DNA of 64,000 nucleotides from the NCBI GenBank assembly GCA_964035545.1, contig OZ037772.1:2852001-2916000 (forward strand). Reading direction: 5' to 3'. The translations under genes were made by a program, and so were the position numbers. Source of the DNA: Bugula neritina. Its lineage: Eukaryota; Animalia; Bryozoa. Below, one piece after another: positions 13,924 to 43,300 of the stretch. The notes under the pieces were generated by a model. The model had not been told where the DNA came from. It worked only from the letters and a program-made list of their open reading frames with translations, and made no database searches. Within the stretch, counting starts at the first letter, position 1, and each line of letters starts with the position of its first letter.

Positions 13924-14214
13924 CCGTCCCCCCCAGCAGAAAGCCCTACTTTCTGATAACACAAAAAAAAAACATAATGAAAAACCATACAATAATCCAA
14001 AAAGGAAAACATATATAAGTAAACCCACAAAGAGTAAGAAAAGAAATAGTTAAACACGACAACGTTTACATTAGAAGACAACAGGGTGATCGATCACACA
14101 CATCTAGTCAGCTATTAAGAGAGAGGGTGCTTACCAGCACGCGGGCCAATGTCGGAGCGCTCGTCACATTCCAAACGAGCTATAGCTCAACGAAGGTGCC
14201 TACCCCAGGCATTC

Positions 14215-15267: not shown

Positions 15268-15290
15268 TTTGGAATGAGAGTGGTAAATGA

Positions 15291-17651: not shown

Positions 17652-18448
17652 GGCTCACGGGCAGTATCTACCTGGCTTGGGGAGGCTAATGTGGTGACCA
17701 GTTTATCTAGCATGTCAGTCATCTGTGAGATTTTTGACGCTAGTGACATCTGGTTCACATTAGCCACCGCGGAGGGTTCCGCATTTAATTCGGTGTGAGC
17801 AGTAGAGTGCTCCGTGGTCACCTGGCGGGAGGCCACGCGGTTGCGGTGCATATGAGTCGCCAAGAGGTAGGCTTCTCCCACCGCAAGTGCATCTTCGACT
17901 GTGGTGACTCTCCTCGCTTGGAGTTGATGGTGGAGCCCCAAGTCGTTGATGGACTGCACGAAGGCATCATAGGTATACCTCTCACGGTGTACCGGAGGCA
18001 GATCGCGGAATGCGATCTGCGCTAATGGGTACACCGTGGCAGCGTGCTCTTCTAGTGACGTGTGAGGATCACGCCGCATCCTCTGTAGACGGGCCCGCGC
18101 ATCTATGGGAGAGATGCCAAAACGGGCCCGCAGGGAAGCAAAGATTCCGTCTATGTCAGGTCCAGCTCCGTACGGCTTAGCTTTGCCCGTCAGCGCCATC
18201 CTGAGCTTTAGCAACGCCACCCTTGGCGGCCATTCTGCAATCTCCATCACATCCTGGAATTCTTGGATGAACTGCTCCACTGCTTCTTCGCCGGTGAAGT
18301 TGGGCGCCTTCAGCCGGTATCTATCTTCACCATGCTCTCTAAGAATTCTCACTTCTTCATCTAACACCACTGGTTCCACAGGTATATCAACATTATCTCT
18401 CTCACCTTCATTCAGTGGAATGGGTAGCTCCGTGCCGTCTTCTGCCAT
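17498..18448 (-). CDS. gag: Gag (capsid plus CCHC nucleocapsid)
   Basis: ATG at 18448; capsid-like APNFTGEEAVEQFIQEF...W...LRMALTGKA; zinc knuckle CWECGRPGHFQRNC. Confidence 0.9.
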   Translation of the reverse strand: MAEDGTELPIPLNEGERDNVDIPVEPVVLDEEVRILREHGEDRYRLKAPNFTGEEAVEQFIQEFQDVMEIAEWPPRVALLKLRMALTGKAKPYGAGPDIDGIFASLRARFGISPIDARARLQRMRRDPHTSLEEHAATVYPLAQIAFRDLPPVHRERYTYDAFVQSINDLGLHHQLQARRVTTVEDALAVGEAYLLATHMHRNRVASRQVTTEHSTAHTELNAEPSAVANVNQMSLASKISQMTDMLDKLVTTLASPSQVDTAREPCGPQVQSPGMGHHFCWECGRPGHFQRNCPQLPPGLNYPGPQMFPPPAGRL

Positions 18449-18464
18449 GACTGCTATACGCAAG

Positions 18465-18482
18465 ATCCCACCGCTGCCACCA
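18465..18482 (-). promoter_or_regulatory. Primer-binding site, tRNA-Leu
   Basis: TGGTGGCAGCGGTGGGAT lies 1 nt after the 5' LTR and is complementary to the metazoan tRNA-Leu(AAG/TAG) 3' end AUCCCACCGCUGCCA-CCA. Confidence 0.85.
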
Positions 18483-18483
18483 C

Positions 18484-18835
18484 TGTAGTAATTTGTGCAA
18501 TTACTGAGCGTGAGTTATTTACTTGCGTATAGTTAGCTGGTTATTCTGTTATCAATTACTAAGGTAGCTGTCGAGTAATTATATTTATTATCCACAATAA
18601 AGCATAAACCAAACATCACATCAAATTATCCTATACAAGAGTCAACTACTAACACATGTTACTACTACAAGCCTCCGCTTACAAGAACGTGATATAATGT
18701 TAATAACCCGGGAAGTGTCACGTGACTCGGAAGCATATCTTCCGGAGCTGCTAATTGGTTGCTACATAAGAGTCTAAGTATTCCAAGAGTAGGGAGAGGG
18801 CGATTCCTGTATTTGTACTTGCACTACTCACTACA
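18484..18835 (-). repeat. 5' LTR of family A copy 1
   Basis: Followed by the PBS and gag; flanked by TSD ATAG. Confidence 0.95.
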
Positions 18836-21212: not shown

Positions 21213-22301
21213 TTAGTCAATACACCAGAGTTGTATATGTGCAACATACTGAAAATACTTGCTAGCCTGTAATCGGCAACTGTAGAGGTGTGCCTCTTGC
21301 TACATGCTCTAATGCGTGTAAGAGGTAAGAGGACTATCAATATTAGTAGGAGTACCCAAGTACCAGTAGACATAGTAGCTGTAGAAAGTCTATCCCAATC
21401 AGTAACTGTAAGCCGTAAGGGCTAAGACTATCACTAGGAATATAAAAAACTATAACTTGAGTATAACTAATTGAAGGTGAGTTAACATAAATTAAAAAAT
21501 AATAAATATAGTTACTACAAAATCAAAATGAAATATGCATTATAAATATTTATATTTTTATTTTATAATAATTTTTAAATTTATTTATATAATTTTATTT
21601 AGGTTCATCACCTTTCATTATGATTAATGAAAGTCATAAATCATATTCATAACGATAATGATAATCACTTAAAAAAATGAAAAGTGATAAACCCATAATC
21701 ATAATGATTATTATTATCATTTATCGCTTATCAGTGATACTCATAATCATAATGATAATCTTGATCATAATCAATATGAATATCAATATAATGTTATACT
21801 TATTCAATAATTATAATTGATCGATTCTTATTCATATTAAATATTAATAATGAATAAAAAATTATATTAACAGTAACACGACAACTTACTTAATTAGAGT
21901 ATTAGTATTAGTATTGTAGTGAGTAGTGCAAAGTACAAATACGGGAATCGCCCCTTCCCTACTCTTGGAATACTTAGCCCTTATGTAGCAACCAATTAGC
22001 AGCTCCGGAAGACATGCTTCCGATTCACGTGACACTTCCCGGGCTATTAACATTATATCACGTTGTTGTAAGCGGAGGCTTGAACTAGTAACATGTGTCA
22101 GTAGTTGACTCTTGTATAGGATAATTTGATGTGATGTTTGTTTTATGCTTTATTGTGGATAATAAATATAATTACTGGACAGCTACCCTAGTAATTACTA
22201 GCAGAATAACCAGCTAACTATACGCAAGTAAATAACTCACGCTCAGTAATTGCACAAATTACTACAGTGGTGGCAGCGGTGGGATCTTGCGTATAGCAGT
22301 C

Positions 22302-23438
22302 ATGGCAGAAGACGGCACGGAGCTACCCATTCCACTGAATGAAGGTGAGAGAGATAACATTGCTATACCTATAGAACCAGAAGTGGCACAGGACCCCCAC
22401 GCCGAACCTGTCTCAACCGATGGCGTCAAGGAGCTAGGACACCTTCAGGAAATTATTCCAGGGGTGGTAGCCGACGTCTATCGAATGAAACGGGAAGGGA
22501 GACGACCCAGTGACAGACAGTGGAAGCTGGGCTGCCCTGAGTGGCAGCTGTACTGCCGAAGTTGGAACGCACTGCAGATCGGGCCGGATGGTCTACTGTC
22601 CATATCCTTGGCCGATAACCACCACCAGCTAGACCAGGAGAGGACCCTCTGTTCTGCCGCCATCCGCCAAGAGTTGATAGAAGAGGTACACCAACAGGCT
22701 CATGGGGGAGCCCAACAGGTGTTCACCGAACTACAACTCTGGTGGTATTGGCCTCACATGGAGCGTGATGTACGACACAGCGTTGGGCAGTGCGGAGTCT
22801 GCCGGGTCAGTAAGCACGGCCCCCCTACTGAGGAGGTAGGGCGGCGAAGGCAAAGTGCAGAAAGACCCGGGCAGACGGAGACTGCTAACCTGGTCGACAA
22901 ACCGCCTAGTATGCAACCCAAAGCAGTGGCGAGGCAGGAAAAGCCACACCCGTTCAGGGAAGTGCGCTCACCGTCGTTAGCGTGCAAGCTGCCACCGCCA
23001 CTCCCTAGGTCAGGAACCGACCTGGAAGTGCAAAAACCCCCCAAGGGAGGGGCTCCGTGCGGAGGTACTGGGAAAGCTCCATTTGTCACAAACTGGCTGA
23101 AGGCACCACCCAAGCGACGTGACCGTCCACGGGTGCGTAAACCGCCTTGGTTAGTGACGACACCTGGGAAACGGTGTTCTAAGCCAGGCCCCGCGTATCG
23201 CAAGGACTTACCACGTTCCGTTAAGGGCGCGGTCAAACGTCCTACGAGACGCCGTGAGGGGAAGGGAGCAGAGCGTGGGAGTTGTGAGCACCACGACAAT
23301 ATTGACTTTTGCCTCGGCGGAATCTCACACGAGATTCGTCCGCTGGAAGTGAAAAGCCCTAGTCACGTTTCACAACCACGCTGTCCGGTCTTTTCCTATG
23401 TTGATGCAGTCGAGAGTAGACGTGCCAGTAAACAGTAA
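22302..23438 (+). CDS. In-frame fusion of the Gag N-terminus (about 28 codons) to the integrase HHCC domain and IN tail
   Basis: Starts MAEDGTELPIPLNEGERDN as in copy-1 gag, then HQQAHGG...WYWPHM...CGVC, and ends PVFSYVDAVESRRASKQ as in copy-1 pol. Confidence 0.75.
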   Translation: MAEDGTELPIPLNEGERDNIAIPIEPEVAQDPHAEPVSTDGVKELGHLQEIIPGVVADVYRMKREGRRPSDRQWKLGCPEWQLYCRSWNALQIGPDGLLSISLADNHHQLDQERTLCSAAIRQELIEEVHQQAHGGAQQVFTELQLWWYWPHMERDVRHSVGQCGVCRVSKHGPPTEEVGRRRQSAERPGQTETANLVDKPPSMQPKAVARQEKPHPFREVRSPSLACKLPPPLPRSGTDLEVQKPPKGGAPCGGTGKAPFVTNWLKAPPKRRDRPRVRKPPWLVTTPGKRCSKPGPAYRKDLPRSVKGAVKRPTRRREGKGAERGSCEHHDNIDFCLGGISHEIRPLEVKSPSHVSQPRCPVFSYVDAVESRRASKQ

Positions 23439-23461
23439 TCATTTACCACTCTCATTCCAAA

Positions 23462-24519
23462 ATGTCTTACTATTCTGGATCGAAGGGTGAGTTAATTATG
23501 TTTTTGGTACGATAACTAGACTGCATCAGTCAGCTTTAGCTACACTAGCTAGCGAGCTGGAGATTCGATAATGATGAACAGTGGTGGGGATACACGTCGA
23601 CTTTGATTTTAAATAATCTGTCATAGCAAGTGTGTTCTCCATCAACTATTCATTAGCCTGAATCTCACGAGTGTAACTGAACAGAGTACCGGTCAGGCTG
23701 TACACGCCGACGGTGCCTCAGTGTATAATCTTTAACACTGCTACTCTTTCAGATCACACTCGAGTGACCACCTCCCGGTCACAGGACCAGCCAACCTCTC
23801 TACCTATGGAAGAAGAGCCTGTAATGGAGAATGGCATACCCGTGGTGCTCCGCCGACGACACCGTTGGGTGTCACCCACGACAGAGAGGAGAATTGAAGA
23901 AGCCTGGGGACCCAGTGGACCACACCGAACCTGCCAGGTCTGCTTTGAAGAGTGCCCGTCACACCGCTCCCTGCGTTTACATGTAGACGCCCATTTCCTG
24001 CTCCACTTCTGTCCCTGCGGGTTCCACGACGTCTACCCGTATCCCGTGACAGTACATAAGCTAAGCTGCTTCGCCGGAGAGAACCACACTGTTGATGAAG
24101 ACAGTTTCCCCCTATACCTGGATGCCATCAAACCAGTCATCAGGAAGGCTATCACCCTGGCCGCGCTAGCGTCAGGGTTTCACGTACTGCTACTATCCGC
24201 CCGCCATAAGTCTCCTATGGTTCAGGGCCCACCTCCTACCCCCGTCAACCCTAGCAACACCCCAGAAGTAGAAGAAACAACAATATCCCCTCTATCGGAG
24301 ACCACTACAACCCCACCAAGGCCTAGCCAGCTGGCTAACGTAGAAGAGTGGCTTGTAAGACTACAAGCCGAGTTCACACAACTTGCCCCTGACCTGCTGG
24401 ATACGACGACAGGTCTATACCAGTTGAAGGACTCAGTAGGGCGACTGAAGAGGCGGCTACGTGCCCGACAGGCTCGACACAGAGCACGGTCGCTACAAGA
24501 ATCAGAATCCAACCAATGA
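23462..24519 (+). CDS. Spliced ORF3: C2H2 zinc-finger plus coiled-coil protein (263 aa; exons 23462-23486 and 23753-24519)
   Basis: ATG at 23462, donor AGG/GTGAGT at 23487, branch-like CTTTAAC, and acceptor CTCTTTCAG ending at 23752. The join is in frame and the structure matches copy 1. Confidence 0.75.
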
Positions 24520-26531
24520 GAATGCCTGGGGTAGGCACCTTCGTTGAGCTATAACTCGTTTGGAATGTGACGAGCGCTCCGACATTGGCCCGCGTGCTGG
24601 TAAGCACCCTCTCTCTTAATAGCTGACTAGATGTGTGTGATCGATCACCCTGTTGTCTTCTATTGTAAATGTTGTCGTGCTCAACTATTTCTTTTCTTAC
24701 TCTTTGTGGGTTTACTTATGTATGTTTTTCTTTTTGGATTATTGTATAGTTTTTCATTATGTGTTTTTTTTATTGTGTTATCAGAAAGTAGGGCTTTCTG
24801 CTGGGGGGGGGGGTCGGTGTAGTGAGTAGTGCAAAGTACAAATACGGGAATCGCCCTCTCCCTACTCTTGGAATACTTAGCCCTTATGTAGCAACCAATT
24901 AGCAGCTCCGGAATATATGCTTCCGATTCACGTGACACTTCCCGGGCTATTAACATTATATCACGTTGTTGTAAGCGGAGGCTTGAAGTAGTAACATGTG
25001 TTAGTAGTTGACTCTTGTATAGGATAATTTGATGTGATGTTTGTTTTATGCTTTATTGTGGATAATAAATATAATTACTGGACAGCTACCCTAGTAATTA
25101 CTGGCAGAATAACCAGCTAACTATACGCAAGTAAATAACTCACGCTCAGTAATTGCACAAATTACTACAGTATTACTAATACTATTAGTATTACTTACAA
25201 CTGTCTTATGCAAGAGAATTAAATCTTTAAAGCGTAGCATCCTTTTCAAGCAAAATAAGGATAATAAGTTTCGTCAAATTGAGTTAAAAACTACAACTTA
25301 TAAGTCACAAGTATAAAGCAACTTATGCTCAGTCATCACTAATCCTAGTGGGTACGGCAAGCATATAGCATAATTTATTTCACAATGCGACAAGATTATC
25401 TAGACGGTGCGATTACGCCTCTCATTGTACTTAAGCAATATCCAATTGTACGGTTCTCATGACTTTAAAATCCGTTTTTGAGAAGCAAGGCTAGATAGAA
25501 GTTAATGATCAATATTGACTCGCTAAGAGTACTCATGTAAACCCGCAAACTACAACTTTTAACTTGACCGCAAAGCTGGAAGTACGATAAGCGTCGCCGT
25601 ATTGATTTCAGGCGAATTTTAGTTGATTTCTTTCAAACTGCTGAGAAGTAATATTTGCTTCCATTTTATGTCTGTATCAGCCATCAGGGCTATCGCGATA
25701 CACTTATAAATGTTCTTAATTCAATCAATATTATGAAATAATTAATGTAGGAAATTCAATTTTGACTATATAGAATAATCTCAATATGAATAAGTATTTT
25801 TTATTTATTGTAACACTTGCACTTCGTCTTACTCTTACTCTTAGTCAGATAACATAGTACATACTCATACTGATAGTTGAAGACCATGCGTTAAAATTAA
25901 CTGTTTCTCTCTTTTCTAAGTTACATTTCAAGTTGCACACTAATAGACACATATGCTTTCAATTTTTTTGATCTATCTTCAAGTTGTGAAACTTGACCAG
26001 TATGACTACGACTAACTGTAACTAGAATAAAATATTGGATGATAGAGAAGTTCCATACCGTTACACCTCCGTTGACTTGTGCTACCGTCGGTAAAACTAA
26101 AAGAGTGGAGCCAAAGAAAAGCATAATCACAGAATTCACAACTTGCTGGTTTGAGATTTTTGTGGTCTAGAGATTGTACTGGGTTACAGGGATCTTTTTC
26201 CCCGTCTGTGAATTTTTGATCCCTGCGGTTGTTTCTGACTGTGGGTAGTTGGAGGTGTTGAGGGAGTGGGCTCACTGGGTAGGCTATATTATTGTAATCA
26301 TATTAACCAATTTGACAGTTTACTAATTCATTGTCTAACTCTGTCTGTCTTAGTCTAGTAACACTATTTATTTATTTATTTACTTATTAATTTAATTAAA
26401 TTACTAGTTTATATTACCAAGTTATATTACTAGTTTATATTACCAAGTTATACTACCAGTTTATATTACCAAGTTATATTACTAGTTTATATTACCAAGT
26501 TATATTACTAGTTTATGTTACCAAGTTATAT

Positions 26532-26861
26532 TGTAGTGAGTAGTGCAAAGTACAAATACGGGAATCGCCCTCTCTCTACTCTTGGAATACTTAGACCCTT
26601 ATGTAGCAACCAATTAGCAGCTCCGGAAGATATGCTTCCGATTCACGTGACACTTCCCGGGTTATTAACAATTTATCACGTTGTTGTAAGCGGAGGCTTG
26701 AAGGAGAAACATGTATTAGTAGTTGACTGATGTATAGGATAATTTGATGTGATGTTTGTTTTATGCTTTATTGTGGATAATAATTATAATTACTAGCAGA
26801 ATAACCAACTAACTATACGCAAGTAGATAACTCACGCACAGTAATCGCACGAATTACTACA
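26532..26861 (+). mobile_element. Solo LTR, family A
   Basis: TGTAGT...ACTACA with TSD ATAT. It is 330 bp long, with a 22-bp deletion between short AATTACT direct repeats relative to the 352-bp LTR. Confidence 0.95.
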
Positions 26862-26998
26862 ATATTACTAGTTTATATTACCAAGTTATACTACCAAGTT
26901 ATATTACTAGTTTATATTACCAAGTTATATTACTAGTTTATATTACCAAGTTATATTACTAATTTATGTTACCAAGTTATATTACTAGTTTATGTTAC

Positions 26999-28409: not shown

Positions 28410-28683
28410 TTACCAAATCAAATTACTAGTTTATATTACCAAGTTATATTACTAGTTTATGTTACCAAGTTATATTACTAGTTTATATTACCAAGTTATA
28501 TTACTAGTTTATGTTACCAAGTTATATTACCAGTTTATATCACCAAGCTATATTACTAGTTTATATTACCGTGTTATATTACTAGTTTATATTACCAAGT
28601 TATATTACTAGTTCATGTTACCAAGTTAAATTACTAGTTTATATTACCAAGTTATATTACCAGTTTATATTACCAAGTTATAT

Positions 28684-29370
28684 TGCTATAGATGTATTCA
28701 AGTATTATTTCATACTTGACATTTTGTATGCTATACCACTACAATATAATATACTACAGATATAGCATCCTGCTTCCCTGCAACCTTAGTTAGGGCTTAA
28801 TATTGTTTTGTATTGAATACTTCCATGTATTCTATCTTTTCCCCATTTATAATATCTCTTTTCTTCCATACATAGTGTATGCCTAATATATAGAATAACA
28901 GTAACATTAAATAGACACACACTTACAAGGTTATACACCATGATACAGGACATACAACTAGTTATTGGAGATGGTACAACATTAGCCCTAAAATTATACT
29001 TCCACATATATGATGTTTCGCAACAGGACTTCTAGCCTAAGGATTATAGCACTTCGCTCTTTAGCTATAAGGTACTTATCACTTTCGTACCCTTACCTTT
29101 TATGTTGAGTGACGGAGCTCTGGCTACAAGAAGTAAGCAATGAGAGAACCTTCTGTCTAAACGTGGCAGCTTTGGTACAGGATTCCAGATCTCTTGTACA
29201 CTAGAGTCCGTCGTAAGCAGATGTGACTGAAGAGAAGAATAATACCGGTAAGTGTGATACCAACTATCAACGCGTTATAGTTATACACATGTAGAATATT
29301 CTAATTGTATGCATACCCTGTGTTATATTAGGTACTTAGTAGTTGAAAACCCCCAGTACTCAATATAACA
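28684..29370 (+). repeat. 5' LTR of family C
   Basis: TGCTATA...TATAACA, a direct repeat of 35717-36403. Confidence 0.95.
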
Positions 29371-29373
29371 TTT

Positions 29374-29388
29374 TGGAGGAGGCACTGG
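29374..29388 (+). promoter_or_regulatory. Primer-binding site, possibly tRNA-Cys
   Basis: TGGAGGAGGCACTGG lies 3 nt after the LTR and resembles the complement of the tRNA-Cys 3' end (TGGAGGGGGCAC...) with mismatches. Confidence 0.55.
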
Positions 29389-30489
29389 CTTTTGCCCAAG
29401 GTTGCCCTTGTTAAATATTGTGTCCAGCTTTGAATTAATAGCTCTTGACACTTGGTTAACCACCCCGTGCGCCAGGGGATAAAATTATATTAATACTTTA
29501 GATAGTGTTGATCAGGCCTCATTTGGCTGTTCACTAATATTTTCCTGTAGGTTTTCTATTCGCTGAGCTTATATTTTGCTCGTGGGTAGACCGTAGAAGT
29601 GCTAGGCCGCACTGAGAAAATATTAATTGAAGCCAAAAAGGATCAACTTTTACATATTACCCCAAAACAATATACATCCATAGACTAATAGTAATAGAGC
29701 GAGAATTCCTATATGTTTAATTTTTCTCTGCTGCTTAAAAGGTGAAAACAAGCCAGTTTTAATTTTTTTAGCCTAGAGATAATTAATTGTAGAAGTGAAT
29801 TACCTCCCTTTGCTAATAGGCTAATTTAGTTGTATAATTGGGTGAGCTGCAGATAAGGTTAACACGCTCCTTATTTAGCAGTTAATAAATTCCAAACAGA
29901 TTCAGTCTACGACTGTCTGTTGAGGTATAGGCGCTGACAAGTACTATAATTAATAGTCTTGTCCTAAACATAATTTCTTATAATTATCTACAATTTACTT
30001 TGCAGTGCATTGCCAATCAGAGCATCACTGAATTGTATATTATATATTTACACAGTATATGAATATTACATTGCAGTACTAAGTATTGCAACACCTGCAG
30101 TGCAGTCAGAGTATTATAGTACAAAGCATTGTCCTATTACGTATTATAGTACCTAAGTACAACAACCGCCTTACTACATAGTACGAATATCAAACTAATT
30201 AATTACTGTGGTTGACTAAATTTAGAGTTTAGACTAGGCTTGAATAGCAGAAATAACTGAATAATTTGTAGTGTACAGAGGTCATAATAAAAGACTTCCA
30301 CTAACTTAAAGTATTTAACTGCAAGCCACACCTTGTCATATATACAGGATAGTACATGCACACATATCGTTGAGTAAGAAATAGACACATAATTGTACAT
30401 TAGCACAAAGTATAAACATTAATAACATTGCAAACAAGTACTGCTGAACTCACTTATTAATTGAGAATTATAAGTCACGCACCAACAAT

Positions 30490-33400
30490 ATGAGTACCGG
30501 AATCGTGACCACCGCCACAACTACAGTCACCACTAGTGTTAGTACTATTGCGACACCAGGTAGTGCCACAAATGTAGCCACGGGCTTAGACACTCCTACT
30601 CTCTCACAAGACTCGACAAGAGAAGGAGCTCACGCATTGGTTGAGTTGTCCGCAAGACGACTCCCAATGAACCCGCATGAAATTGCAAGGTTCTACGAGT
30701 TAGAATACAAGAAACTTGTAGAGGAGCAGGAAAAGCAAAAGGATGTATGGAGATATGAGCAAGAACAATGGCGACAGTATCAACAAACGAAAGAGCATGA
30801 ACTGGCGGAACAGTTTCAGCGCCTCGAGGTAGAAAGACAAGAGCAAGCAAGAAGACGGTACGAGATGGAGGAACGTTTTGAAATCCAACGGAGAAAGTTC
30901 TATGAGGAACAGAGCGCTGTTCAAGAACAACAGCAAAATGAGTTCCTGGAAAAAGAGCATCGGCTCACAATCCAGCAACAAAAGTTACAACAACAACTTG
31001 AAGATTTTCGGAATTTCACCTTGGGTCAAAGATCTACCAATGATGCAAATGTCATGCCGGAACCAACTCCGCCACCTCGAACTCGCCTACCTCCACCAGT
31101 TACGCCACGAAAAACAAGTAGAAGACAACTTCATGAACAACCAGCACCTACAAATACTACCTTGGAATTCACATCAAGTTATCCCCACATTGCTAATCAA
31201 CGATCACCAAAACCTCATAACTCACCAATTCAAAGCTTAGCTGAAACACCATCTGAACCCAGCATTGGAGTAGCTGATGCGGGAAAATTTCACAACTCAC
31301 CTATTATTCTGAGAGAGCCTCCACAGAACATCAAATTTAAAGGAACTCCTGGTTCCAGCTGGGAGTTATTTCTTGAAAAATGGGAAAAGAACATAAAAAA
31401 ACTGCAGCTTAGTGATTATCAGATGGCACAAAACCTTCCATATGCCCTGGAAGGTGGTGCCTATCAGGTTTTCAAGGCAGTAGTTGCAAAGGAGCCCACG
31501 CTAGCGATTAGTTACAAAAGTCTTCGAGAGAGGTTATGCAAAGAGTTTGTCGACTCAAGCAAATTAGTGTGGAACATAAAGATGAGGAAGAAAAGCGTAT
31601 TAGAATATTATGGCGAATTTATGGAAGCTGCCAACACCCAATGGCCTGACCTCTCCCTTGAACATAAAGATAGCGAACTAGTATCTGCTTTTATTACTGG
31701 TCTACGACCAGGATTGAAGAGGCACATCCTCTCTAAAAACCCCACAACTGTAGAAAGTGCTAGGAAACTTGCACTTAAGCAAGAAAATGTAGAACATCAG
31801 ATGGGAGATGACACCCAGAGAATAGTGGCAACGGTAAACTCATCGGACTCAGTTCAAAAGCTAGAAAAAGAGGTAGAATGGTTGAAAACTTTAGTGCACA
31901 ACCAAGCTAAAGAGCAACGGCAGCCCCAATACCAACAGCACCAACAACAGAGTCAAGGGTTTGGAATGAGAAATGACAGAGGTAGAGGTGGTGGATGGAG
32001 AGGAACAACAAACCGAGGAAGAGGACGAGGTAGATACTTCAACCAGGGGAAGCCTCAACCCTACTACCAATCTTCTCCCCGGTACCCTCATCCACCAGCA
32101 CAACTTCCTTCCTGCCCACCTCAACCACCCTCTCACCAGCAACCACAACGTAATCAGTGCTCTGGTCAACAGAGAAAAACCAAAGATTACAGTGGGACGC
32201 GACACATCAATGCTATTGAGAGCCTGGAAGGTGATGAATTTGCCGAGGCCCTTCTGACTCAGCCTCCTCAAGATGAGATAGCTGAGGAATCAGTGAATTC
32301 AATTCAAACCTCCCCAAATGAATTCATCTCTGACAGAAAACCCAAAAGAAAAAGAAGCAGAGGACGGGGGACTGGTTTGTCAACAATGCAAACCTACATG
32401 TTGGCACTAGTGGCAATGTGTATGCTAATCAGTGTAGCCGCAGCCACTGCACCAGTAAAAGGCACAGCTCTCCTGGGGCCAGCTTTGGCCAGTCAGACTC
32501 TCACCAGCATACTATCTGTGTTAGTGTTGACAGCAGTAGTGAATGCATTGTCTAACACGACTGTTTTTAACACTACACAGAAGGCACAGCCGCAGTATGC
32601 CAGGTATCCTTTGGTGTGTAGTTCCAGTGAAGTGAGGCGACCATCTATTCATCAATTGAATCATGACTTCCAATGTGATCCGACTCCAAGACCCAATAGT
32701 ACTCATGCGCCAACCCCTGTGAAGGCTACGGTTTACAGAAAAAATGTAGTGGAATGGCGTACAGCAGCCTATCAATGCACTAAAATGCTGTACACCATCT
32801 CCACACAGATATCACTTTTTACGGACGTGAAAACTAAGAAGGAATCTCACCGGTCACTGCCAGTTAGCCGCAGCGAATGCGAAAATATGGTACTAGAGAA
32901 GAGATGCAATGAAGGTGCCCTATCTGGAAGTGATGGTGCATACACTACAAAAAACAAAGCTGTAGGATTAGCTTATGTTTGGTGCTGCAAGTGGCATCAC
33001 TTTGAAGTGAAACAATGCAGTTATATTTCAGCTTCGGTATACAAGACATTTGGGAAAAGTTCTTTTGAAAGCACCGCAGGTGACGTTTCCCATTGCAACT
33101 CATACTCTGATGGCTACTGCAAACTCAGAGATCAATCTATGCTAATATGGGAAACAGAACGAGAAGCTAATTGTCCATACGAGGAGTGGTATGAAGTTGA
33201 AGGAAGTTTCCTTGATGGCTATTTTGTTAGTGATCAAGGAGACTTGGCTTTAACTTTCCGCAAGAACCCCTTTGAGAATATTACCACTTGTGACGGCAAG
33301 TCAGGCACAATGTCGGACCAAGGTTTGCTTGTTGTTTTTAATACTTCAGACCTGTTCAACACCACTCTAACGCAACACGTTGAAAAAGCTCCTGGACTAG

Positions 33401-34497
33401 AATGGGACCGCAGGAGTCGTTTGAGTCCAGCATATGCTGTCATGGACGCTATAGCTCAGTCCCTAGAAGTACAGATCCTCGGAATCGAATCAAAACTGTA
33501 TTGGACATCTTATCAATATACCTGTAAAAACATAGTTCAAGTCCTCAAAACCGTAGCTCTCCTCGCAGAGCAACATGCGACGAGTACAGCCAGATACTTA
33601 CTAGGGGTAAGCAATATCCGAGCTGAGTCTGGTCCTGGTTTTCTAAAGATTTACCCATGTACGGAAATAAAAAGCTACAAAATGCTCCCTATGCCAGAGA
33701 ATAATTGCACCATGTTTATTCCAGTGGAATTGGAACTCAGTGGGGAAACGCACACTGGTTTCATGGATCCAATGGATAACATTATTCACACACAAAGTGC
33801 ACAAGCACCGTGCACATCCAAATCAGCAATTGCATTCCGGATGAACGATGAATTGTTTTGGTATAACCAAGATGGTACCGTAGAAAAGGTTAATCTTGGA
33901 GAAGAGCTGAGTTTACCTGGAATTTCTCTAGGTGCACACCCTCTTAAAATCCATGAAACAATCTACAGCCGTGCCCATCACTTAAGTTGGCCTGACCTGT
34001 CAGCACACTCTGACTTGAATGAATTGCTAGCTACTTTGTCAAGACAGAAACAAGTTTTAGAAGCAATGGGAATTCAATCCAACAGACATGTTTCCTTTAA
34101 AAACAATGTCATTGAGTCGAAAGAAAACTTGATAGGGAACTCTTGGTTTGCTTTCCTGTTTGGAGGGCATGTGGCGAGTGCATTCGAATTGTGGACTTTG
34201 ATATCCAACTGTTTAGTCACCATATTGTCAATTGCATTGCTAGGTATTTTCCTATATAATCGTTGTTGCCAGCGAAGGAGAAATATTGTAGCAGCTATCG
34301 ACATTGAGGACACAGAGAACACATCTGACAATGATGTTGAGGCAGGAGAACAGGATGGGTTCCTGGACGCTTCCGATCAGACTAGCTTCACAGAATTCGT
34401 AGATATGGTAGAGGTGGACACTAGACCAACCCCTAGTGCTCCTTCGCCTGCATCCTCAATTCAGCAATATCGCCCCCTCTATCCGAAACTGCAATGA
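30490..34497 (+). CDS. Gag-Env polyprotein: coiled coil + retrotransposon capsid + RGG-rich region, fused to a class III viral fusion glycoprotein
   Basis: Capsid motifs KFKGTPGSSWELFLEKWE...ALEGGA and SVLEYYGEF...FITGLRPGLK. RGG boxes are present and there is no CCHC knuckle. An internal hydrophobic signal starts at Met633 (32386), followed by a Cys-rich ectodomain with NxS/T sites and an RRSR site. A TM helix lies at about 34183-34257, followed by NRCCQRRR and an acidic tail. Confidence 0.9.
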   Translation: MSTGIVTTATTTVTTSVSTIATPGSATNVATGLDTPTLSQDSTREGAHALVELSARRLPMNPHEIARFYELEYKKLVEEQEKQKDVWRYEQEQWRQYQQTKEHELAEQFQRLEVERQEQARRRYEMEERFEIQRRKFYEEQSAVQEQQQNEFLEKEHRLTIQQQKLQQQLEDFRNFTLGQRSTNDANVMPEPTPPPRTRLPPPVTPRKTSRRQLHEQPAPTNTTLEFTSSYPHIANQRSPKPHNSPIQSLAETPSEPSIGVADAGKFHNSPIILREPPQNIKFKGTPGSSWELFLEKWEKNIKKLQLSDYQMAQNLPYALEGGAYQVFKAVVAKEPTLAISYKSLRERLCKEFVDSSKLVWNIKMRKKSVLEYYGEFMEAANTQWPDLSLEHKDSELVSAFITGLRPGLKRHILSKNPTTVESARKLALKQENVEHQMGDDTQRIVATVNSSDSVQKLEKEVEWLKTLVHNQAKEQRQPQYQQHQQQSQGFGMRNDRGRGGGWRGTTNRGRGRGRYFNQGKPQPYYQSSPRYPHPPAQLPSCPPQPPSHQQPQRNQCSGQQRKTKDYSGTRHINAIESLEGDEFAEALLTQPPQDEIAEESVNSIQTSPNEFISDRKPKRKRSRGRGTGLSTMQTYMLALVAMCMLISVAAATAPVKGTALLGPALASQTLTSILSVLVLTAVVNALSNTTVFNTTQKAQPQYARYPLVCSSSEVRRPSIHQLNHDFQCDPTPRPNSTHAPTPVKATVYRKNVVEWRTAAYQCTKMLYTISTQISLFTDVKTKKESHRSLPVSRSECENMVLEKRCNEGALSGSDGAYTTKNKAVGLAYVWCCKWHHFEVKQCSYISASVYKTFGKSSFESTAGDVSHCNSYSDGYCKLRDQSMLIWETEREANCPYEEWYEVEGSFLDGYFVSDQGDLALTFRKNPFENITTCDGKSGTMSDQGLLVVFNTSDLFNTTLTQHVEKAPGLEWDRRSRLSPAYAVMDAIAQSLEVQILGIESKLYWTSYQYTCKNIVQVLKTVALLAEQHATSTARYLLGVSNIRAESGPGFLKIYPCTEIKSYKMLPMPENNCTMFIPVELELSGETHTGFMDPMDNIIHTQSAQAPCTSKSAIAFRMNDELFWYNQDGTVEKVNLGEELSLPGISLGAHPLKIHETIYSRAHHLSWPDLSAHSDLNELLATLSRQKQVLEAMGIQSNRHVSFKNNVIESKENLIGNSWFAFLFGGHVASAFELWTLISNCLVTILSIALLGIFLYNRCCQRRRNIVAAIDIEDTENTSDNDVEAGEQDGFLDASDQTSFTEFVDMVEVDTRPTPSAPSPASSIQQYRPLYPKLQ

Positions 34498-35007
34498 CTA
34501 GAAGCCGACACACCCAGTACTAGTAGCCGCATTGAAATAGTAGCAGGAATAAATGGTAGTCAATGTAGGAGTGCGTTAATTGATGTCAAAATAGCAGGAA
34601 AACCGTATCAAGCATTAGCTGATGCCGGGGCTACGGTGACATTGATGCGCTCTGACATTGCTAAAAGATTGAGTCTACCATTATATTCAGGTACCTTGAC
34701 TGCAAAAGGGGTTAACAGCTCTAAACTTCATATAATAGGACGCACGGCCGCTGAGATTACAATTGGATCGAAAGTGTTTAAGCAGTGTTTTCATGTAGCT
34801 GATGATATTGGCCATGAGGTACTGCTTGGAACTGATTTTCTTAGCAAACTGGGTGATGTCACCTACAATTTTGCAAAAGGAGAGTTTCGTTTCTCTGGCG
34901 AAACTTTACCCATGGGAGAAACCAACGCACTAACTACTTTTAAAATAAGAACTGTGAATGCAGTACACATACCACCATATTCTCACCCGATTCATTACTC
35001 TACATAA
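34498..35007 (+). CDS. pro: Retropepsin-like aspartic protease, in frame behind the gag-env TGA (predicted readthrough extension); pol truncated after it
   Basis: 169 sense codons in the same frame, with VKIAGKPYQALADAGATVTLM and VLLGTDFL. The catalytic triad reads DAG instead of D(T/S)G. There is no ATG before the active site. Confidence 0.85.
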   Translation, partial: LEADTPSTSSRIEIVAGINGSQCRSALIDVKIAGKPYQALADAGATVTLMRSDIAKRLSLPLYSGTLTAKGVNSSKLHIIGRTAAEITIGSKVFKQCFHVADDIGHEVLLGTDFLSKLGDVTYNFAKGEFRFSGETLPMGETNALTTFKIRTVNAVHIPPYSHPIHYST

Positions 35008-35716
35008 CCATGCAGATATACCAGATATACTAATATTTACTACCATATTAATAATCAAGTTTTTCAACGGAACACAGGAGTTTTCCTGTTGTTCACAGGG
35101 GGAGTACTTTAACATTTTTTTCAGCATTACAGGTTAACATCTCCTACAGTTTTGGCTTCTTATAAAACAAACTTACTAAAAATTGCAGAAATCAAATTGA
35201 CTTTTGATTAAAATAAAATTAAGTAAGCTCTGTATTGGGAAAATTGAATCAAATCAAGCGGAATTTTTAAATATTCAAAGTTGGATAAAATGCGGAGTCG
35301 ATTGTTATCACCACCTCCTGTGACTTATGTTTATAATATTCATAATTAGTGTATTTTTAGTAAATGTTTACTTATGGCTAAAGTCTTGTTTTTTTATTTT
35401 ATCAACAGATATAGTTCATCAAAAAAAAAATAATAATGAAAATATGGTTACAAAAAAAAAGGAACAATGTAAGAAATGAGTGAAAAAAAAATATGTGACC
35501 AGAACAAAAAAAAATACTCACTCTAATCGATGAACTCACTAGTACTAATAGAATACATATATACAACAGCTAGTATACATAATTTTCAAATTTTACTCAT
35601 TCTATTGTGAAAGGTTTTTCTTCCTTTTTTTTTTATTTCAGAGTAGTAATGCTTAATTGTTTATGCTTTCAACAAGCATAAGCCACCGGAGGTGTCTTTC
35701 TCTAAATTGGGGAGGA

Positions 35717-36403
35717 TGCTATAGATGTATTCAAGTATTATTTCATACTTGACATTTTGTATGCTATACCACTACAATATAATATACTACAGATATAGCA
35801 TCCTGCTTCCCTGCAACCTTAGTTAGGGCTTAATATTGTTTTGTATTGAATACTTCCATGTATTCTATCTTTTCCCCATTTATAATATCTCTTTTCTTCC
35901 ATACATAGTGTATGCCTACTATATAGAATAGCAGTAACATTAAATAGACACACACTTACAAGGTTATACACCATGATACAGGACATACAACTAATTATTG
36001 GAGATGGTACAACATTAGCCCTAAAAGTATACTTCCACATATATGATGTTTCGCAACAGGACTTCTAGCCTAAGGATTATAGCACTTCGCTCTTTAGCTA
36101 TAAGATACTTATCACTTTCGTACCCTTACCTTTTATGTTGAGTGACGGAGCTCTGGCTACAAGAAGTAAGCAATGAGAGAACCTTCTGTCTAAACGTGGC
36201 AGCTTTGGTACAGGATTCCAGATCTCTTGTACATTAGAGTCCGTCGTAAGCAGATGTGACTGAAGAGAAGAATAATACCGGTAAGTGTGATACCAACTAT
36301 CAACGCGTTATAGTTATACACATGTAGAATATTCTAATTGTATGCATACCCTGTGTTATATTAGGTGCTTAGTAGTTGAAAACCCCCAGTACTCAATATA
36401 ACA
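35717..36403 (+). repeat. 3' LTR of family C
   Basis: Preceded by the PPT and followed by TSD ATAT. Confidence 0.95.
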
Positions 36404-36675
36404 ATATTACCAGTTTATGTTACCAAGTTATCTGACTAGTTTATATTACCAAGTTATATTGTCAGTTTATATTACCAAGTTATCTTACTAGTTTATATTA
36501 CCAAGTTATATTACTAGTTTATGCTACCAAGTTATATTACTAGTTTATATCACCAAGTTATCTTACTAGTTTATACTGCTAGTATTCAACAACTATTCTC
36601 CATCACATCTCAACTCTGACGCAACTACACTGACTAATCATCCGTATAGTTTATAGTTTATGTTGAACTCTTCAG

Positions 36676-38467
36676 ACCCTGAGAACTGTGCGTGTGGCTT
36701 CACCTGCGAGTGTGGTGCCTGTGTTGGGGTATGTGACCTTGACAGAGACTGTGGGAAGCTGCAGATCTGTTTGGAGAAAAGATGTTATCAGCAGGCCTCA
36801 CCAGATGACAGAACAGTTGTCTGGGATCTTTATCACTCTGAACTAGTAGAATGTTCTTCAGGTATGACCTTTGCTCCATTGGAGTTTAAAAGTGTTGCTT
36901 TCTGTTGTACTTATATCTGTGCTGGCCAGGATTTTTGAATGATTTTTGTAATGTATTTACGTAACAGAGTGTAAAATTAAAGCTGAATTTGCTTTATTTT
37001 CTATATATTTTGTTTGTGATTATCAGCATTTTTATTTGTAGAGATAAAATTTATCAAAAGAGTTTCATACACTTGTATTTACTTAGACTCGGACTGTGTT
37101 GGTGTGTGTGTGGGGGGACTTTGCTCAGACACCTGCAAGTACGAGCTGTCATGCACACTTGGCAGGACGTGTCAAGGTGGCAAGTGCTTCTATCCGTGTA
37201 CTGACAACACAGCCTGTCCTAGTGATGGACAGATCTGTCACCATGGTGACTGTAAAGAGGGCTGTCAGGTGAGTAGTCACTATGACTTATACTGCGAGTA
37301 TCGATGATTTTCATACTATGAGTTATGACTACCTACTATAATTTATACTGTGAGACCAAGTAGCTGCTGTAACTTATGCTGTAAATCATGACTAACTAAT
37401 ATCACTACTACTGTGAGTCATGACTAACTAATATCACTAATACTGTGAGTCATGACTAACTGATATCACTTATACTGTGAGACCAAGTAGCTGCTGTAAC
37501 TTATACTGTGAGTCAATTATCAAAAATAGCAAAGAAGTAGAGATATACTGTGTATTAAATTTAGTAAAGTTACCTAATTATGACTGGATGCTCTTCCTTG
37601 CATCACCAAAGGTTTTTACTGGGGCTTAAACCCATTACTTTAAGTTTACTAAGCAAACACTCTAACCCCTAGATCACTGCTGCACTTGCTAATGATCACA
37701 CTTTATGTATGATTGGTACCCAAATAGGACAGAGCAAAGATAACTAAAGCGAAGATAGAATATATTTTGACACTGCTGAAAAGAATTAAGCATAGAGCGT
37801 GTTATCTCATAAAGCCTTAATATAATTAAGTATAGTTACTCTGTTAGTATAGTTACTCTGCTAGTATAGTTACTCTGTTAGTATAGTTACTCTGTTAGTA
37901 TAGTTACTCTGTTAGTATAGTTACTCTGTTAGTACAGTTACTCTGTTAGTACAGTTACTCTGTTAGTATAGTTACTCTGTTAGTATAGTTACTCTGTTAG
38001 TATAGTTACTCTGTTAGTATAGTTACTCTGTTAGTATAGTTACTCTGTTAGTATAGTTACTCTGTTAGTATAGTTACTCTGTTAGTATAGTTGCTCTGTT
38101 AGTATAGTTGCTCTGTTAGTATAGTTACAGTAACAGTTTGCTAGTCATAATAACTTGCACTGTTAGTTGCTTAACAAGTTATTCTACATCTCTTGTAGCC
38201 ACAACCAAAGTGGTGTCTATATATCCTGCTAGTGACTTGAGTAATGACTCATATGTCTCCTACAGTACGAGTGGTCAGCTTGCGGCAGTGTTGGAAGAGA
38301 GTGGAGACAACTTGGATCAGAGGTATAGGTATTGCTTAGTATAAGTTATACCATTACCATATATTAGCAGAATGACAGATGAACTGACTGACAGACTGAC
38401 TGATTGACTGACAAACTGACTGACTGACTGACAAACTGACTGACTGACTGACTGACTGACTGACTGA

Positions 38468-38500
<33 letters not shown>

Positions 38501-38826
38501 TTGCTGACTGACTGACTGACTGACTGACTGACTGACTGACTGACTGACTGACTGACTGGACAGACAGACAGACAGATAAACAGGTAGGTAAATATCGATC
38601 AGATATATAGTGAAGCTACCAACTGAGACCCAGACTGTGTTTTGATACTGGTATATGATATCTTTCTACAATGTGTTTACAGTTCACTCTACAAAGTATA
38701 GTTTCATCAGATGGACTCACTCTACTCATGTGTAAGACTCATCAAGAATGTCTACCCAATCTGATCTGTGTTAGCGAGGTGTGCACACTGACGTGTAAAA
38801 GTGACTCCGAGTGTGCATCTAACCAG
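36676..38826 (+). pseudogene. Exons of a cysteine-rich repeat (C-x5-C-x4/5-C-x4-C) extracellular protein, probably degenerate
   Basis: Exon-like blocks at about 36676-36861 (CDLDRDCGKLQICLEKRC), 37088-37268 (CTDNTACPSDGQICHHGDC) and 38712-38826 (CKTHQECLPNLICVSEVC), with AG/GT borders and an apparent frameshift in the second. Confidence 0.55.
37830..38130. repeat. 17-bp tandem repeat
   Basis: Unit GTTAGTATAGTTACTCT. Confidence 0.9.
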
Positions 38827-40370
38827 GTTAGATACTGCATACATGTCTCTATCCTAGCAGGTATTTCACAAACTATTCTGAAACCCATACTTTTATTGTT
38901 CATTGTCTATGTATTCTCCACCATATTTTTACTAGAAGTAAACTTTATTTCAGTAATGAGTTTAAAATAAATTATTGTTTCGCATTGTACAGTTTATTAT
39001 TGCCTGAATCTTGTAATAAGAATATTGACAATATTAGAGCAGCAATGTGATTGGCTTAACAATACCAGAGCAGGGATTTGATTGGCTTAACAATATCAGT
39101 GCAGCGATGTGATTAGCCTAACAATATCAGTGCAGCGATGTGATTAGCTTTACAATATCAGCGCAGCGATGTGATTAGCTTTACAATATCAGTGCAGCGA
39201 TGTGATTAGTTTTAGAATATCAGAGTAGGGATGTTATTAGCTTTACAATATCAGAGCAGGGATGTTATTGGTTACTCTGTTCTGTTCTGCAGGGCTTCAG
39301 AGGAAATTGAGGGGAAATGGGATTGCCCTGTGCTGTAGGGGATTGCCCTGGAAAACCCATACATCAATGTCCAATGGGAGAGAGCCGGTCGACTGGGCTC
39401 AAGAGATTCCTCGGACCAGTCGGTGCTCCTGGTTATCCTGACCTGCAAGAACCGAGGTTGGTGAATAGTATCTTTGTGGGGCTCACTGCTTGTGTGGAAG
39501 TTGTCTCCTCTGAAATATTTGGAAGTATAGCTTGAGTTCCTTGCCCTGTATTCTCAGTTAGCCACACCTAGGTGTTTCACAGTTTATTACAGGGTTGGGG
39601 TAATTGTAATTTGTAATTGTAATTAGTTGTATTTAATTACATTTTTTCAAGTAATTGAATGTAATTTGTAATTGATGTATAGACATGTAATTGTAATTGT
39701 AATTAATTACATATCTAATGTAATTGATTTTTACAATTACATCTCAATTACTTCAAACTTTTAAATCTTAAAAAATTCATTCTTTTTTAACATGCCTACT
39801 GTTAAATAACAAGTTCAGGTTAAGTCAATGTAGTATAGTATCAGTGTTGAGAACAAAGGAGGTTCACCACTGTCAAAATTGCCCCTGCTAGTTGGATCCT
39901 AGAAAGGAAATTGTATAACTTCTATTTGTCCTTTGTGAGAACAAAAGTAATTGTAATTGTACTTAATTGCTTTACAATGTAATTTTGTAATGTAATTAAT
40001 TACATTTATTTCAACTGTAATTATAATACAATACAATACAATACAATACCACTGCAGCGATGTGATTGGTTTGACAATATCAATGCAGTGATGTGATTGG
40101 CTTGACAGTATCAGAGTAGTGATGTGATTGGCTACTCTGTTCTGTTCTGCAGGGCAATGCCTACTTGTATTACGTGTTAATCTTGTTTTGCAGTGAACAG
40201 AAAGGGAGAATGGGTTATAAAAGACACCCAGGATTTTACAGAACTGATGGAGAGGGAGGGTTCACCCGATGTTGATGGCCTGCCTGGTATATCCGGCAAT
40301 CCTGGGATGCAGGAGAAAGGAGACCACCTTGTTTCCCAGGAGATACCGAACTTTTTGGAGAACCAGGTAA
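38366..40370 (+). repeat. Segmental duplication copy A (direct repeat of about 51928-53973)
   Basis: Collinear ACTG microsatellite, Cys-rich exon, 30-bp repeats, collagen exons and hAT MITE. Copy A lacks about 230 bp, including the right end of the MITE. Confidence 0.92.
39293..40366 (+). pseudogene. Collagen Gly-X-Y exons, degenerate (copy A)
   Basis: GFRGN*GEMGLP...GPVGAPGYP and GSPDVDGLPGISGNPG, with a stop at 39308-39310 and many Gly substitutions. Confidence 0.8.
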
Positions 40371-43300
40371 TGTGCAGAACCTAAAGCACTTTTTTAGTCG
40401 TTTATGCAAAATTGTTCTTTCAGTCCAATATATGAAAGTTATAAAACACGCACTAACTGAAAGCCAATTTTTTTTCAATAAAGTATATCATAGACCTGCA
40501 TACTTTGTTCAGGAAAGAAGAGAGAGCCACGCCTACCATGTGTCCAATGAAAACAGATCTGTCATACTAAGTAGCTACAGACCTGCTATACCAGATAAAA
40601 ACAAACCTGCCATATTGCACAAAACTGAACCTGCAGTACTGAGCAAAGAGCAACCAATCAAATATTCCAAGCAAAGAGAAAACAATTCAGCATGCTTACC
40701 TTGTTCTGGTAACCACTACACAACTGTGAAGAGAAAGGGCTGGAAAGCTACACAACTTTGAGAGATTTCTCATACAGACAGCTGTTCTATAGGAAGTGTT
40801 ACATAAGAGTTGTGACTATTGACTATTATATACAGGGTTGTAAGAATGTGGACACAGTTTTAGGATTTATTATTTTAGGAATCCAATACGTTAGTTATGT
40901 TATGATAGCATTAACTTAGCAGAAGCTTTGGTGGAATTTGATATAATGCTTGATTACTACTCAAAGCAGGAAAGTTCAGTATTTTTTTAAAAAGATTATA
41001 ATATTATATTTGTATTTTCGTATAAATATATGTTCATTATACACGCCGGTCATAAAAGTCAATTCATTATATGGTATACAAAATTACATCTGCAAATAAA
41101 CATGTGCATGCTGCAGCTGAAGAATTACAAATAAAATGAAAAGGAAACAAAACATATTCAACTGGATGAGTCATCAAATGACATTGCTGTATAAAATGAC
41201 GAATTAGGAAAGAGAAAGCCTGTGGAAACAAAGCAACACTGAACTACAATGTGGCTAACAAATACCAGGTCAACAGAAATAATATCAAAACTAATGAATA
41301 AAATACCAAGAGGTGTAAAATGTCAATATAAGTACACATAGAAAAAATATGTGATATACAGAATAAAAAGTAACAGTTTAATATTGATAAAGCTTTTCAT
41401 TTTCACACAAACATAACATCTTTACAAGGCATTATTGTATATATATATATTGATGCACCGCCTTGTCTGTGTTTCTCAGCAGTGCCTGCAAACAAATATG
41501 GAGATATTACTCAGGAAATGAGCAGAATTCTTTTTATTTTAGATATTTTACATATTCTTACATTAACAAAGGCATAAACTTTAAACATCTACATAAAATA
41601 TTGGAGATATTTTAACTTTTTCTGCAACATCTGTAAGTTAAACAGTAAAAAACAAGTTTCTACCCAACATAAAATGTCAACCATAGGACAATCACCTGCA
41701 TGAATTGAATGATGAGCCTGGATATCTTATTGCTGAGCTGTGACATCCTCTGCACAGTGTCTGCCAGGTGCTCTGAGTCAATATCATCACACACACTAGA
41801 GCACAGCTGGCACTGTTCCAACAACACCTCCGATGAGGTCACCAGTTGCAGACAACACGCCCCTGTAGCTTCTTGACACTGGGAATCTTCTGGCTCTATA
41901 AGTTTGTATCATGAGGATATATTTAATACGATGTTACGTGATTATATGGAGTTGTCATCACAATACAAAATAGTGATAGTTTTGAGCAACAAATCTTATA
42001 TTATTATATGAACTTATTGAGAAATAGCATCTTGGGAACATAGGCTTTACATTACAACATTACCATACATACACATGTATAACAGAAGTTGAACAAAATA
42101 TTTTTATATTCCTATCCTAAAAATTTCAATATTTTTCAAGTCAGTTGGTTCTACACTGTTCAGTGGAATGCTTTTTTTTAAACAAAGAAAGTGTTATTTA
42201 CATTCATTAATTTTAGTTGCTAAGAGAGATAAAGTTGCAGATAGTTCTTTTCCTTTCAGATAAAACGTGTTACATATGCATATGAATATGTTCAACTGAT
42301 GATATCAATTAAAATACAAATACCTTGCAACATAAAATAAAACAACACCTGCAAAATACTGCTTACAATCGAATTTGCAGCTCAAACTGTAATGCTGAGT
42401 TCACCCTGTGGCCCCTGTAGTGTAATGGTAGCACGCTAGCGGGTGGAAAAGTTTTTAATTAAGTTCTGGGTTTGCAATGCAATTAGGACTCACCTGCTGA
42501 CGCTGCCTTGTAGCTCTCCAGAATGCTGCCAGCAGAGATTCTACACAACTCACACTGCCGCAGTATGCAGTCAAACACCTTCCTGCTCCCTGCATTGGTT
42601 GCTATAAACAGTACAGAGCTACACGTATGAGATAAGAGTGGACTAACAGAGTAGTCTCTGAGAATATATACGAGGTATATGATCAGAGAGGAGATTATTC
42701 CAAAACAGCCGAAACTAGGTTGGTGTGAAAATAATCCGACTTAATTAATGACTTTAGTAGTAAAACTACTGCTACTGTTGCAGGCACACTCAGCTCTCAT
42801 GTGCCTCACAGACGTCTCAAACATAAGGTAGTAAACTGCTTTATTAATTGAATTTTTTGTAAAAAGGGTGACAAACAATTGAGTGAAGACAAAAAAACAG
42901 AAACATAACCAGTACCTTTATTTTTTTGTAAACTGTAGGAGATGAAATCTTTGCACATGGAGAACATGGTACTGGAAGACATGAGCTTTGACCTTGACCT
43001 GCCTCTGACCTTCATAGATGGAGACTGCTGATTGGCTGAAGCAGAGGTAAAGACTAACTCCATAGAAGTGAGTTTATTCTCAGAGCTAAGGCTCTCGCTC
43101 AGACTGTCAATAGAGAAACACAGAGATAGAGCTGCTCTACTCATACGTGGTGGAAGTTGATAAATGTCAAATTAATACCAAAATATTACACTCATTTGTA
43201 CTGGAAATCGAATGAAATCATTAGAAAGTAAATGAGATATTTGAATTATCAAATAGCAAGGAGGTTATGTTGTTGGCAATTTAATTAACTATTTTCTCAA

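Follow-up and report, generated by a model that had tools for sequence, protein, structure and literature searches.

Retroelements with env between gag and pol have been described. Chary and Hayashi (eLife 2026, PMC13524379) reported GAG-ENV-POL elements with an Env of the glycoprotein B (gB) type in Nematoda, Bryozoa and Platyhelminthes, and they cite the nematode NERVs as having Env ahead of Pol. The planarian Burro/GYPSM1 elements (Arkhipova and Yushenova 2019, PMC6431247) have an in-frame Env, a mononegavirus-like glycoprotein, between gag and pol, and were called the first such case. We analyzed a stretch of 64,000 nucleotides from Bugula neritina (contig OZ037772.1, positions 2,852,001 to 2,916,000; hereafter the window). 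It contains a long terminal repeat (LTR) retrotransposon with a Gag-Env open reading frame (ORF) of 1335 amino acids, seen in the ORF list and its translation, that ends in TGA (30490-34497; all stranded features of this element are on the + strand). An earlier note on this DNA had suggested that the layout might be novel. It is not; an in-frame env at this position had already been published for Burro (PMC6431247), and the order GAG-ENV-POL in PMC13524379. The gene order was known. What is likely new, judging from sequence, is a conserved and probably leaky stop codon together with likely budding motifs, both at the inner tail of Env.

The gB-type GAG-ENV-POL errantiviruses of Chary and Hayashi have a Ty3/gypsy Pol, a gB-type Env and the order gag-env-pol, as in the family of the window element. 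The closest published elements are in the bryozoan set of that paper, with an Env of type HSV/gB (HSV, herpes simplex virus) and cysteine class C2b, especially Cpal_errantivirus_4, _5 and _6 (PMC13524379). In the Env table of PMC13524379, AGDVSHC is found in only two bryozoan rows, and Cpal_5 has 11 residues identical to the window there. By eye, the Env of Cpal_errantivirus_4 to _6 resembles the window Env, and judged in this way the window element probably belongs to the bryozoan Cpal clade. PMC13524379 treats GAG, ENV and POL as three ORFs, whereas Gag and Env are in one frame in the window family. The main text of that paper (figures and files 3-6 aside) has no mention of readthrough, polyprotein, in-frame, ESCRT (endosomal sorting complex required for transport) or late domain. 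Neither readthrough after an Env tail nor late domains on such a tail were found in the main text, in the preprint or in literature searches.

The Burro/GYPSM1 elements have one ORF of 4,900-5,100 amino acids with many extra domains, and no stop between Env and Pol is described for them in PMC6431247. In contrast, the window element is compact. We did not find a giant single ORF with accessory domains; the 1335-amino-acid ORF had matches to Gag and Env only. The NERVs of Sacco et al. 2022 are said to encode a Nyamiviridae-like glycoprotein, which would agree with the top viral fold match of our Env model. They reportedly also have one continuous gag-env-pro-pol ORF. This trait was not found here; all 7 of 7 lineages have a stop ahead of the protease. 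Two other assignments were rejected. For BEL/Pao, there was no Pfam match to a DUF1759 Gag or to Peptidase_A17 at E up to 1, nor in the Pol of the relatives. The layout of Retroviridae and of the Drosophila errantiviruses has env 3' of pol, and env is upstream of pol in the window and in its relatives.

Gene order in the family and the two halves of the Gag-Env frame

We found that the order in the family is gag-env-stop-protease (PR)-reverse transcriptase (RT)-RNase H (RH)-integrase (IN). Relatives were drawn from metagenome contigs and comprised 19 loci, 14 of which span the env-pol junction; the other 5 stop short of it or are decayed. At 13 of the 14 junction loci, an ORF ending in Env is followed by one stop and then by pol in the same frame. 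The remaining locus (L005) has frame breaks in env, yet here too a TGA stands before the pol ORF. Matches to Gag and to Env were within one ORF at 8 loci. All six of the relatives' Pol frames that were scanned had the order PR-RT-RH-IN, indicating that the relatives are Ty3/gypsy elements. The junction loci represent six lineages, seven with the window, whose last 640 residues share 37-59% identity. We also found 12 homologues at 35-53% identity; nine long homologues were scanned, with a Gag or zinc-knuckle match in eight and a protease match in none. The gag-env-pro layout is ancestral, not a rearrangement. The earlier note had argued that the order was no chance rearrangement, and the Gag-Env fusion at 8 loci, with a PR-RT-RH-IN Pol behind it, bears this out. 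It had also proposed a search for full-length relatives; their order was gag-env-PR-RT-RH-IN, with a stop before PR.

In a tree of RT-RNase H sequences, the stop-bearing lineages grouped together (0.97) and were set off from four env-pol proteins that are continuous (0.994). Of 129 sequences, 64 were used for this tree (background matches thinned to every third), with FastTree local supports, a midpoint root and no named references. Two of the four continuous proteins, at 2627 and 2741 amino acids, comprise Gag, Env and Pol in full, and the continuous forms P0095 and P0104 lie outside the stop-bearing clade. None of 24 close Pol matches that were picked had more than 34 residues ahead of the catalytic Asp, in a search limited to 710-2261 amino acids, in which whole continuous forms could not appear. 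Env-less Gag relatives of fewer than 734 amino acids, which would bear on a possible insertion of env between the nucleocapsid and a p6-like tail, were represented by one fragment of 113 amino acids among 566 candidates. No relative was found among viral contigs, where 4 pattern matches were seen and none was confirmed.

Other domain arrangements were seen among more distant proteins. P0030 and P0032 are distant relatives with yet another domain order, in which a protease is ahead of Env too; in P0032, protease matches flank Env. In P0130, P0135, P0141 and P0155 the Env family of the element is found beside NADAR and poly(A)-polymerase-like domains, in the case of P0135 within a BEL/Pao polyprotein.

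The N-terminal half of the window ORF is Gag-like, as had been proposed. Pfam Retrotrans_gag (PF03732) matched residues 318-407 (E = 2.8e-5; 5e-7 with the excised domain), in a Ty3/gypsy-type capsid domain at residues ~275-440 (31312-31809). A match to Ty3_capsid (PF19259) was weak, below the cut-off. Residues 494-516 (31969-32037) are a nucleocapsid-like, RG-rich stretch. Most relatives have a CCHC knuckle here; unlike them, the window copy had none that we could find in its Gag. Farther on are two V/I-N-A/S-V/I motifs around an acidic helix (32206-32304), putative viral-protease sites that would free Gag from the anchor. These are followed by a basic patch and two hydrophobic segments (32332-32550), a candidate internal signal/anchor that has one segment in most relatives. 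The hydrophobic segments of the ORF are at residues 638-656, 666-684 and 1237-1255.

Two variants were seen in this part of the protein. One contig of run X2 is without 44 bases between the two hydrophobic segments that precede the ectodomain (32440-32485); the runs used here consist of contigs and are silent on expression level and strand. In P0003, residues ~600-670 hold about four tandem copies of the putative protease-site motif that lies ahead of the signal.

The C-terminal half of the ORF is, as modelled, a viral class III fusogen. The gB-like ectodomain (32551-34197) was recognized by Pfam, by a profile search and by a structural model with Foldseek. There are 7 sequons between residues 689 and 1072 and 16 cysteines between residues 710 and 1108, in agreement with the Cys-rich, N-glycosylated type of membrane protein that the first reading of the sequence had placed here. 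Pfam Monjiviricetes_fusion matched in the C-terminal half (E = 5e-7). In the profile search of solved structures, 24 of 25 matches were to gB, the best being gB of Epstein-Barr virus (E = 8e-16). The Env model made from 62 aligned sequences had a mean predicted local distance difference test (pLDDT) of 84.6, and a single-sequence model had a pLDDT of 35.7. Foldseek matched the Env model to herpesvirus gB (E = 1e-18) and to nyamivirus G and related glycoproteins (E = 3e-29), the latter being the top viral fold match. That is, the fold comparison that had been called for gave a viral glycoprotein fold. The ectodomain is followed by a transmembrane segment, recognized by hydrophobicity, and then a Cys-Cys pair (34198-34254).

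The stop codon before pol and the cytosolic tail of Env

The TGA at 34495-34497 divides the Gag-Env ORF from a protease in the same frame. The protease had been thought to follow directly in the frame of the ORF; the frame was right, and the direct continuation was not. The aspartic protease, found by Pfam, is the start of pol (34498-34982), with its catalytic Asp codon at 34621 and the first Met beyond that. A single in-frame stop is present before pol in all seven lineages (six and the window). The sequence is CAA-TGA-C in six of them and GAA-TAG-CAA-CTA in L013. The flanks have AA at -2/-1 and C at +4 in 7/7 and A at +6 in 6/7, and most other columns are variable. In addition, Gln is the last residue in 12 of the 16 Gag-Env or Env proteins, against a background of 5.8%.

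These contexts are similar to ones that are prone to readthrough. The stop in the window is CAA-TGA-CTAG (34492-34501). Readthrough at the motif UGA-CUAG has been described, and two adenines on the 5' side reportedly weaken termination (PMC9841425). UAG-CAA-CUA in L013 fits CAR-YYA, the readthrough signal of tobacco mosaic virus (PMC2754532). In 6/7 lineages, the first Met past the stop falls beyond the catalytic Asp of the protease, so Pol cannot simply restart. In P0021, 33% identical in Env, a YPKL-bearing tail continues straight into the protease. This relative thus has, in one plain ORF, the fusion that would be expected from readthrough. Based on context and conservation, Pol is likely a readthrough extension of the Env tail in this family.

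Several retroelements are known to use readthrough, including murine leukemia virus (MuLV; gag-UAG-pol), Tca2 (gag-UGA-pol) and SIRE1 (pol-stop-env) (PMC2194720). In these, the proportion of two products is set by one in-frame stop, as would be the case in the window family. In contrast to these elements, the stop in the window family comes after a membrane protein's cytosolic tail, and Pol would extend Env. The window family also differs from MuLV in that no MuLV-like structure is conserved past the stop.

The cytosolic tail of Env has 80 amino acids (34255-34494), and a motif scan identified two motifs of the late-domain type, PSAP (34432-34443) and YPKL (34480-34491). PT/SAP, PPxY and YPxL are the types of late domain found in retroviruses and filoviruses, normally in Gag or matrix and often combined (PMC7995964). 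Here, they lie where the structural ORF ends, on the Env side of its membrane anchor. We compared 19 Env tails, leaving out P0010, which ends at the transmembrane segment. At least one late-type motif was present in 18 of the 19: PSAP/PTAP in 11, PPxY in 7 and YPxL in 14. The numbers of tails expected from shuffled sequences were 0.26, 0.67 and 0.36, respectively, and 1.26 for any of the motifs. Upstream of the tails there were 7 occurrences in 18,358 residues. The tail sequences are related, so the count indicates conservation within a variable region and not 18 events. These patterns suggest that the tail motifs likely serve budding, through recruitment of ESCRT by Env.

Proposed expression strategy and alternatives

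The element encodes Gag together with a gB-like Env in a single frame. We think it probable that its family makes Pol by readthrough of the stop and that the ESCRT-type motifs on the tail function in budding. Unspliced, full-length RNA would be translated to give Gag-Env. Past the nucleocapsid, the basic patch and hydrophobic segment would serve as an internal signal, such that Gag stays cytosolic and the ectodomain enters the lumen of the endoplasmic reticulum (ER). The C-terminal transmembrane segment would bring the chain back to the cytosol, where a tail with PSAP, PPxY or YPxL would face TSG101, NEDD4-type ligases and ALIX. A minority of ribosomes would pass the stop, joining PR-RT-RH-IN to the tail and setting the ratio of structural proteins to enzymes. 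Signal peptidase would split Gag from Env, and Pol would therefore enter the particle on the Env anchor and not as Gag-Pol. The viral protease would cut at V/I-x-x-V/I sites to give free capsid, tail peptide and enzymes. This motif is present ahead of the signal in 10/14 cases and past the transmembrane segment in 11/14. It is reasonable to infer that the Gag:Env ratio is about 1:1 and that Gag would be tethered at the ER.

A more far-reaching version, which we hold only tentatively and consider rather doubtful, is that, in a lineage of animal retrotransposons, everything at the end of the Gag programme of retroviruses, late domains as well as the readthrough signal for Pol, has shifted onto the cytosolic tail of the gB-like Env. 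Env would then package the enzymes and drive budding, and the element would be a gypsy virus that is obligately enveloped and has a structural polyprotein of the alphavirus kind. If true, this shift would tie replication to a membrane-budding step. 

According to Chary and Hayashi (PMC13524379), the way in which Env transmits these elements is elusive outside Drosophila. The ESCRT-type motifs conserved on the Env tail are sequence evidence for budding of a non-insect gypsy lineage, and a leaky stop would explain the excess of structural proteins over enzymes in a gag-env-pol element. Readthrough after Env also raises the question of how Pol enters the capsid with a membrane-spanning protein between Pol and Gag.

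Several observations weigh against the proposed scheme, from the Env fold to readthrough and budding. The 7 lineages and the 19 tails share ancestry and do not count as independent events. In L009, a Met lies 6 residues ahead of the catalytic Asp of the protease. There was no shared RNA structure 3' of the stop, and no conserved stem-loop or strong fold, over 100 nt in the 7 lineages (z-scores of -2.7 to +2.3, below -2 in 2/7; pseudoknots were outside the modelling). In a yeast reporter, the in-frame UGA of Tca2 was not read through via its local context (PMC2194720). The window copy and P0001 carry two hydrophobic segments ahead of the ectodomain, and if both crossed the membrane the topology would invert. 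The tail of P0016 has no PSAP/PTAP, PPxY or YPxL, and YPxL also suits tyrosine-based sorting signals. The protease-site motif was chosen post hoc and is at a Pol domain border in some relatives only. Global TM-scores of the Env model to gB were low, at 0.29-0.31 for post-fusion forms and up to 0.51 for a pre-fusion form.

It is conceivable, if unlikely, that readthrough holds and that the tail motifs merely sort Env to endosomes or lysosomes. Particles would then be intracellular, and Pol would be freed and afterwards join them through contacts with RNA or Gag. YxxL-type and PPxY motifs also work in endocytic sorting. The overlap of late domains with endocytosis signals has been noted (PMC7995964). 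Further, in distant continuous env-protease proteins a motif was present in only 6 of 21 linkers (1.71 expected, with the transmembrane call wrong for ~5). However, all three retroviral types of late domain are present in the tails, often combined, as in Gag and matrix proteins, and PSAP/PTAP (11/19) is no plain endocytic signal.

Somewhat less likely than Env sorting is that, as in foamy viruses, Pol comes from an RNA that is spliced or has a promoter of its own, with the stop as a true end. Foamy viruses express Pol via spliced RNA (PMC7828637), and Tca2 has a minor promoter at its junction (PMC2194720). The window copy has donor-like GGTAAG sequences at 29247, in the LTR, and at 29841, in the leader. 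Env, like Pol, may come from a spliced message. However, 6/7 lineages are without a Met before the catalytic Asp, and a spliced Pol would not need the reading frame and the stop context, yet both are conserved. A crude scan of 34260-34620 gave a sole acceptor-like site, at 34464; since this lies upstream of the stop, splicing there would leave the stop in place. One contig of run X5 extends unspliced from 31219 to 34574, although that X5 is RNA is a guess.

Domestication of the window copy as a host Gag-Env gene is very improbable. The 4-kb frame is open despite the loss of RT and IN, but an open frame is expected because the copy is young. Its LTRs are 99% identical, it has a target duplication, and there are many divergent and deleted copies in runs from the same organism. 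Lastly, a gag-env-pro order private to the window copy, which did undergo one internal deletion, is refuted by the recurrence of the order and the fusion, with Gag and Env in one ORF, at 8 loci of relatives and by the same order in published elements.

Anatomy of the window copy and its surroundings

The window copy is a young, internally deleted Ty3/gypsy retrotransposon. The element (28684-36403) has LTRs at 28684-29370 and 35717-36403, identified by comparison of the pair, each 687 bp with TG...CA ends; 7 of 687 positions differ. Since 30490-34497 is without an internal stop, the first description, an uninterrupted 1335-codon ORF between near-identical LTRs, holds. A target-site duplication, ATAT, is present at 28680-28683 and again at 36404-36407; the 5' copy is within a 13-bp satellite and, in an AT-rich repeat, is weak taken alone. 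Inspection of the sequence identified a sequence like a primer-binding site that starts with TGG 3 nt past the 5' LTR (29374-29388) and a polypurine tract (35704-35716). The TG...CA LTRs, primer-binding site, polypurine tract and short target duplication are as in Ty3/gypsy elements (Metaviridae), as are the Ty3-type capsid and the retropepsin matched in Pfam.

The leader (29389-30489) is 1.1 kb and has only 3 ATG triplets. The region from 29371 to 30489 is AT-rich, and about 20 ATG triplets would be expected by a rough hand estimate from composition. The scarcity of ATG suggests that scanning to the one at 30490 has been selected for.

No RT, RNase H or integrase was found within the element between its two LTRs, and likeness to the Pol of a relative stops at 34983. 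Contigs from runs X1, X2 and X12 depart from the window sequence past 34982, and contigs from X1, X2 and X5 join it at 34974-34977, coming from other sequence. These departures and entries fit a deletion at a short overlap, and we place the junction, with its 6-nt overlap, at 34977-34982. The copy keeps its LTRs, primer-binding site, polypurine tract, Gag-Env and protease; RT and integrase would come from complete copies. Some contigs from X5 and X12 have loose ends between 30513 and 31020 and frameshifting indels in the gag region at 30563, 30806 and 31056, which suggests that they are smaller deleted derivatives of the family.

Other repeats are present in the window. Two related, GC-rich gypsy-type LTR elements are in opposite orientation, at 13572-18835 on the - strand and 21915-25171 on the + strand, with LTRs of ~352 bp that are 99.4% alike in the first and 98.0% alike in the second. 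The first has a 787-codon frame with matches to a zinc knuckle, a protease and an integrase zinc finger and no RT match. Both have a 280-codon frame without a Pfam match (14218-15057 and 23677-24516), and a further LTR-like copy is at 26529-26870. To the right of the Gag-Env element is a short Cys-rich, exon-like host sequence (36660-37270). A block of ~2 kb is duplicated at 38430-40373 and 51924-53976, with 91-95% identity.

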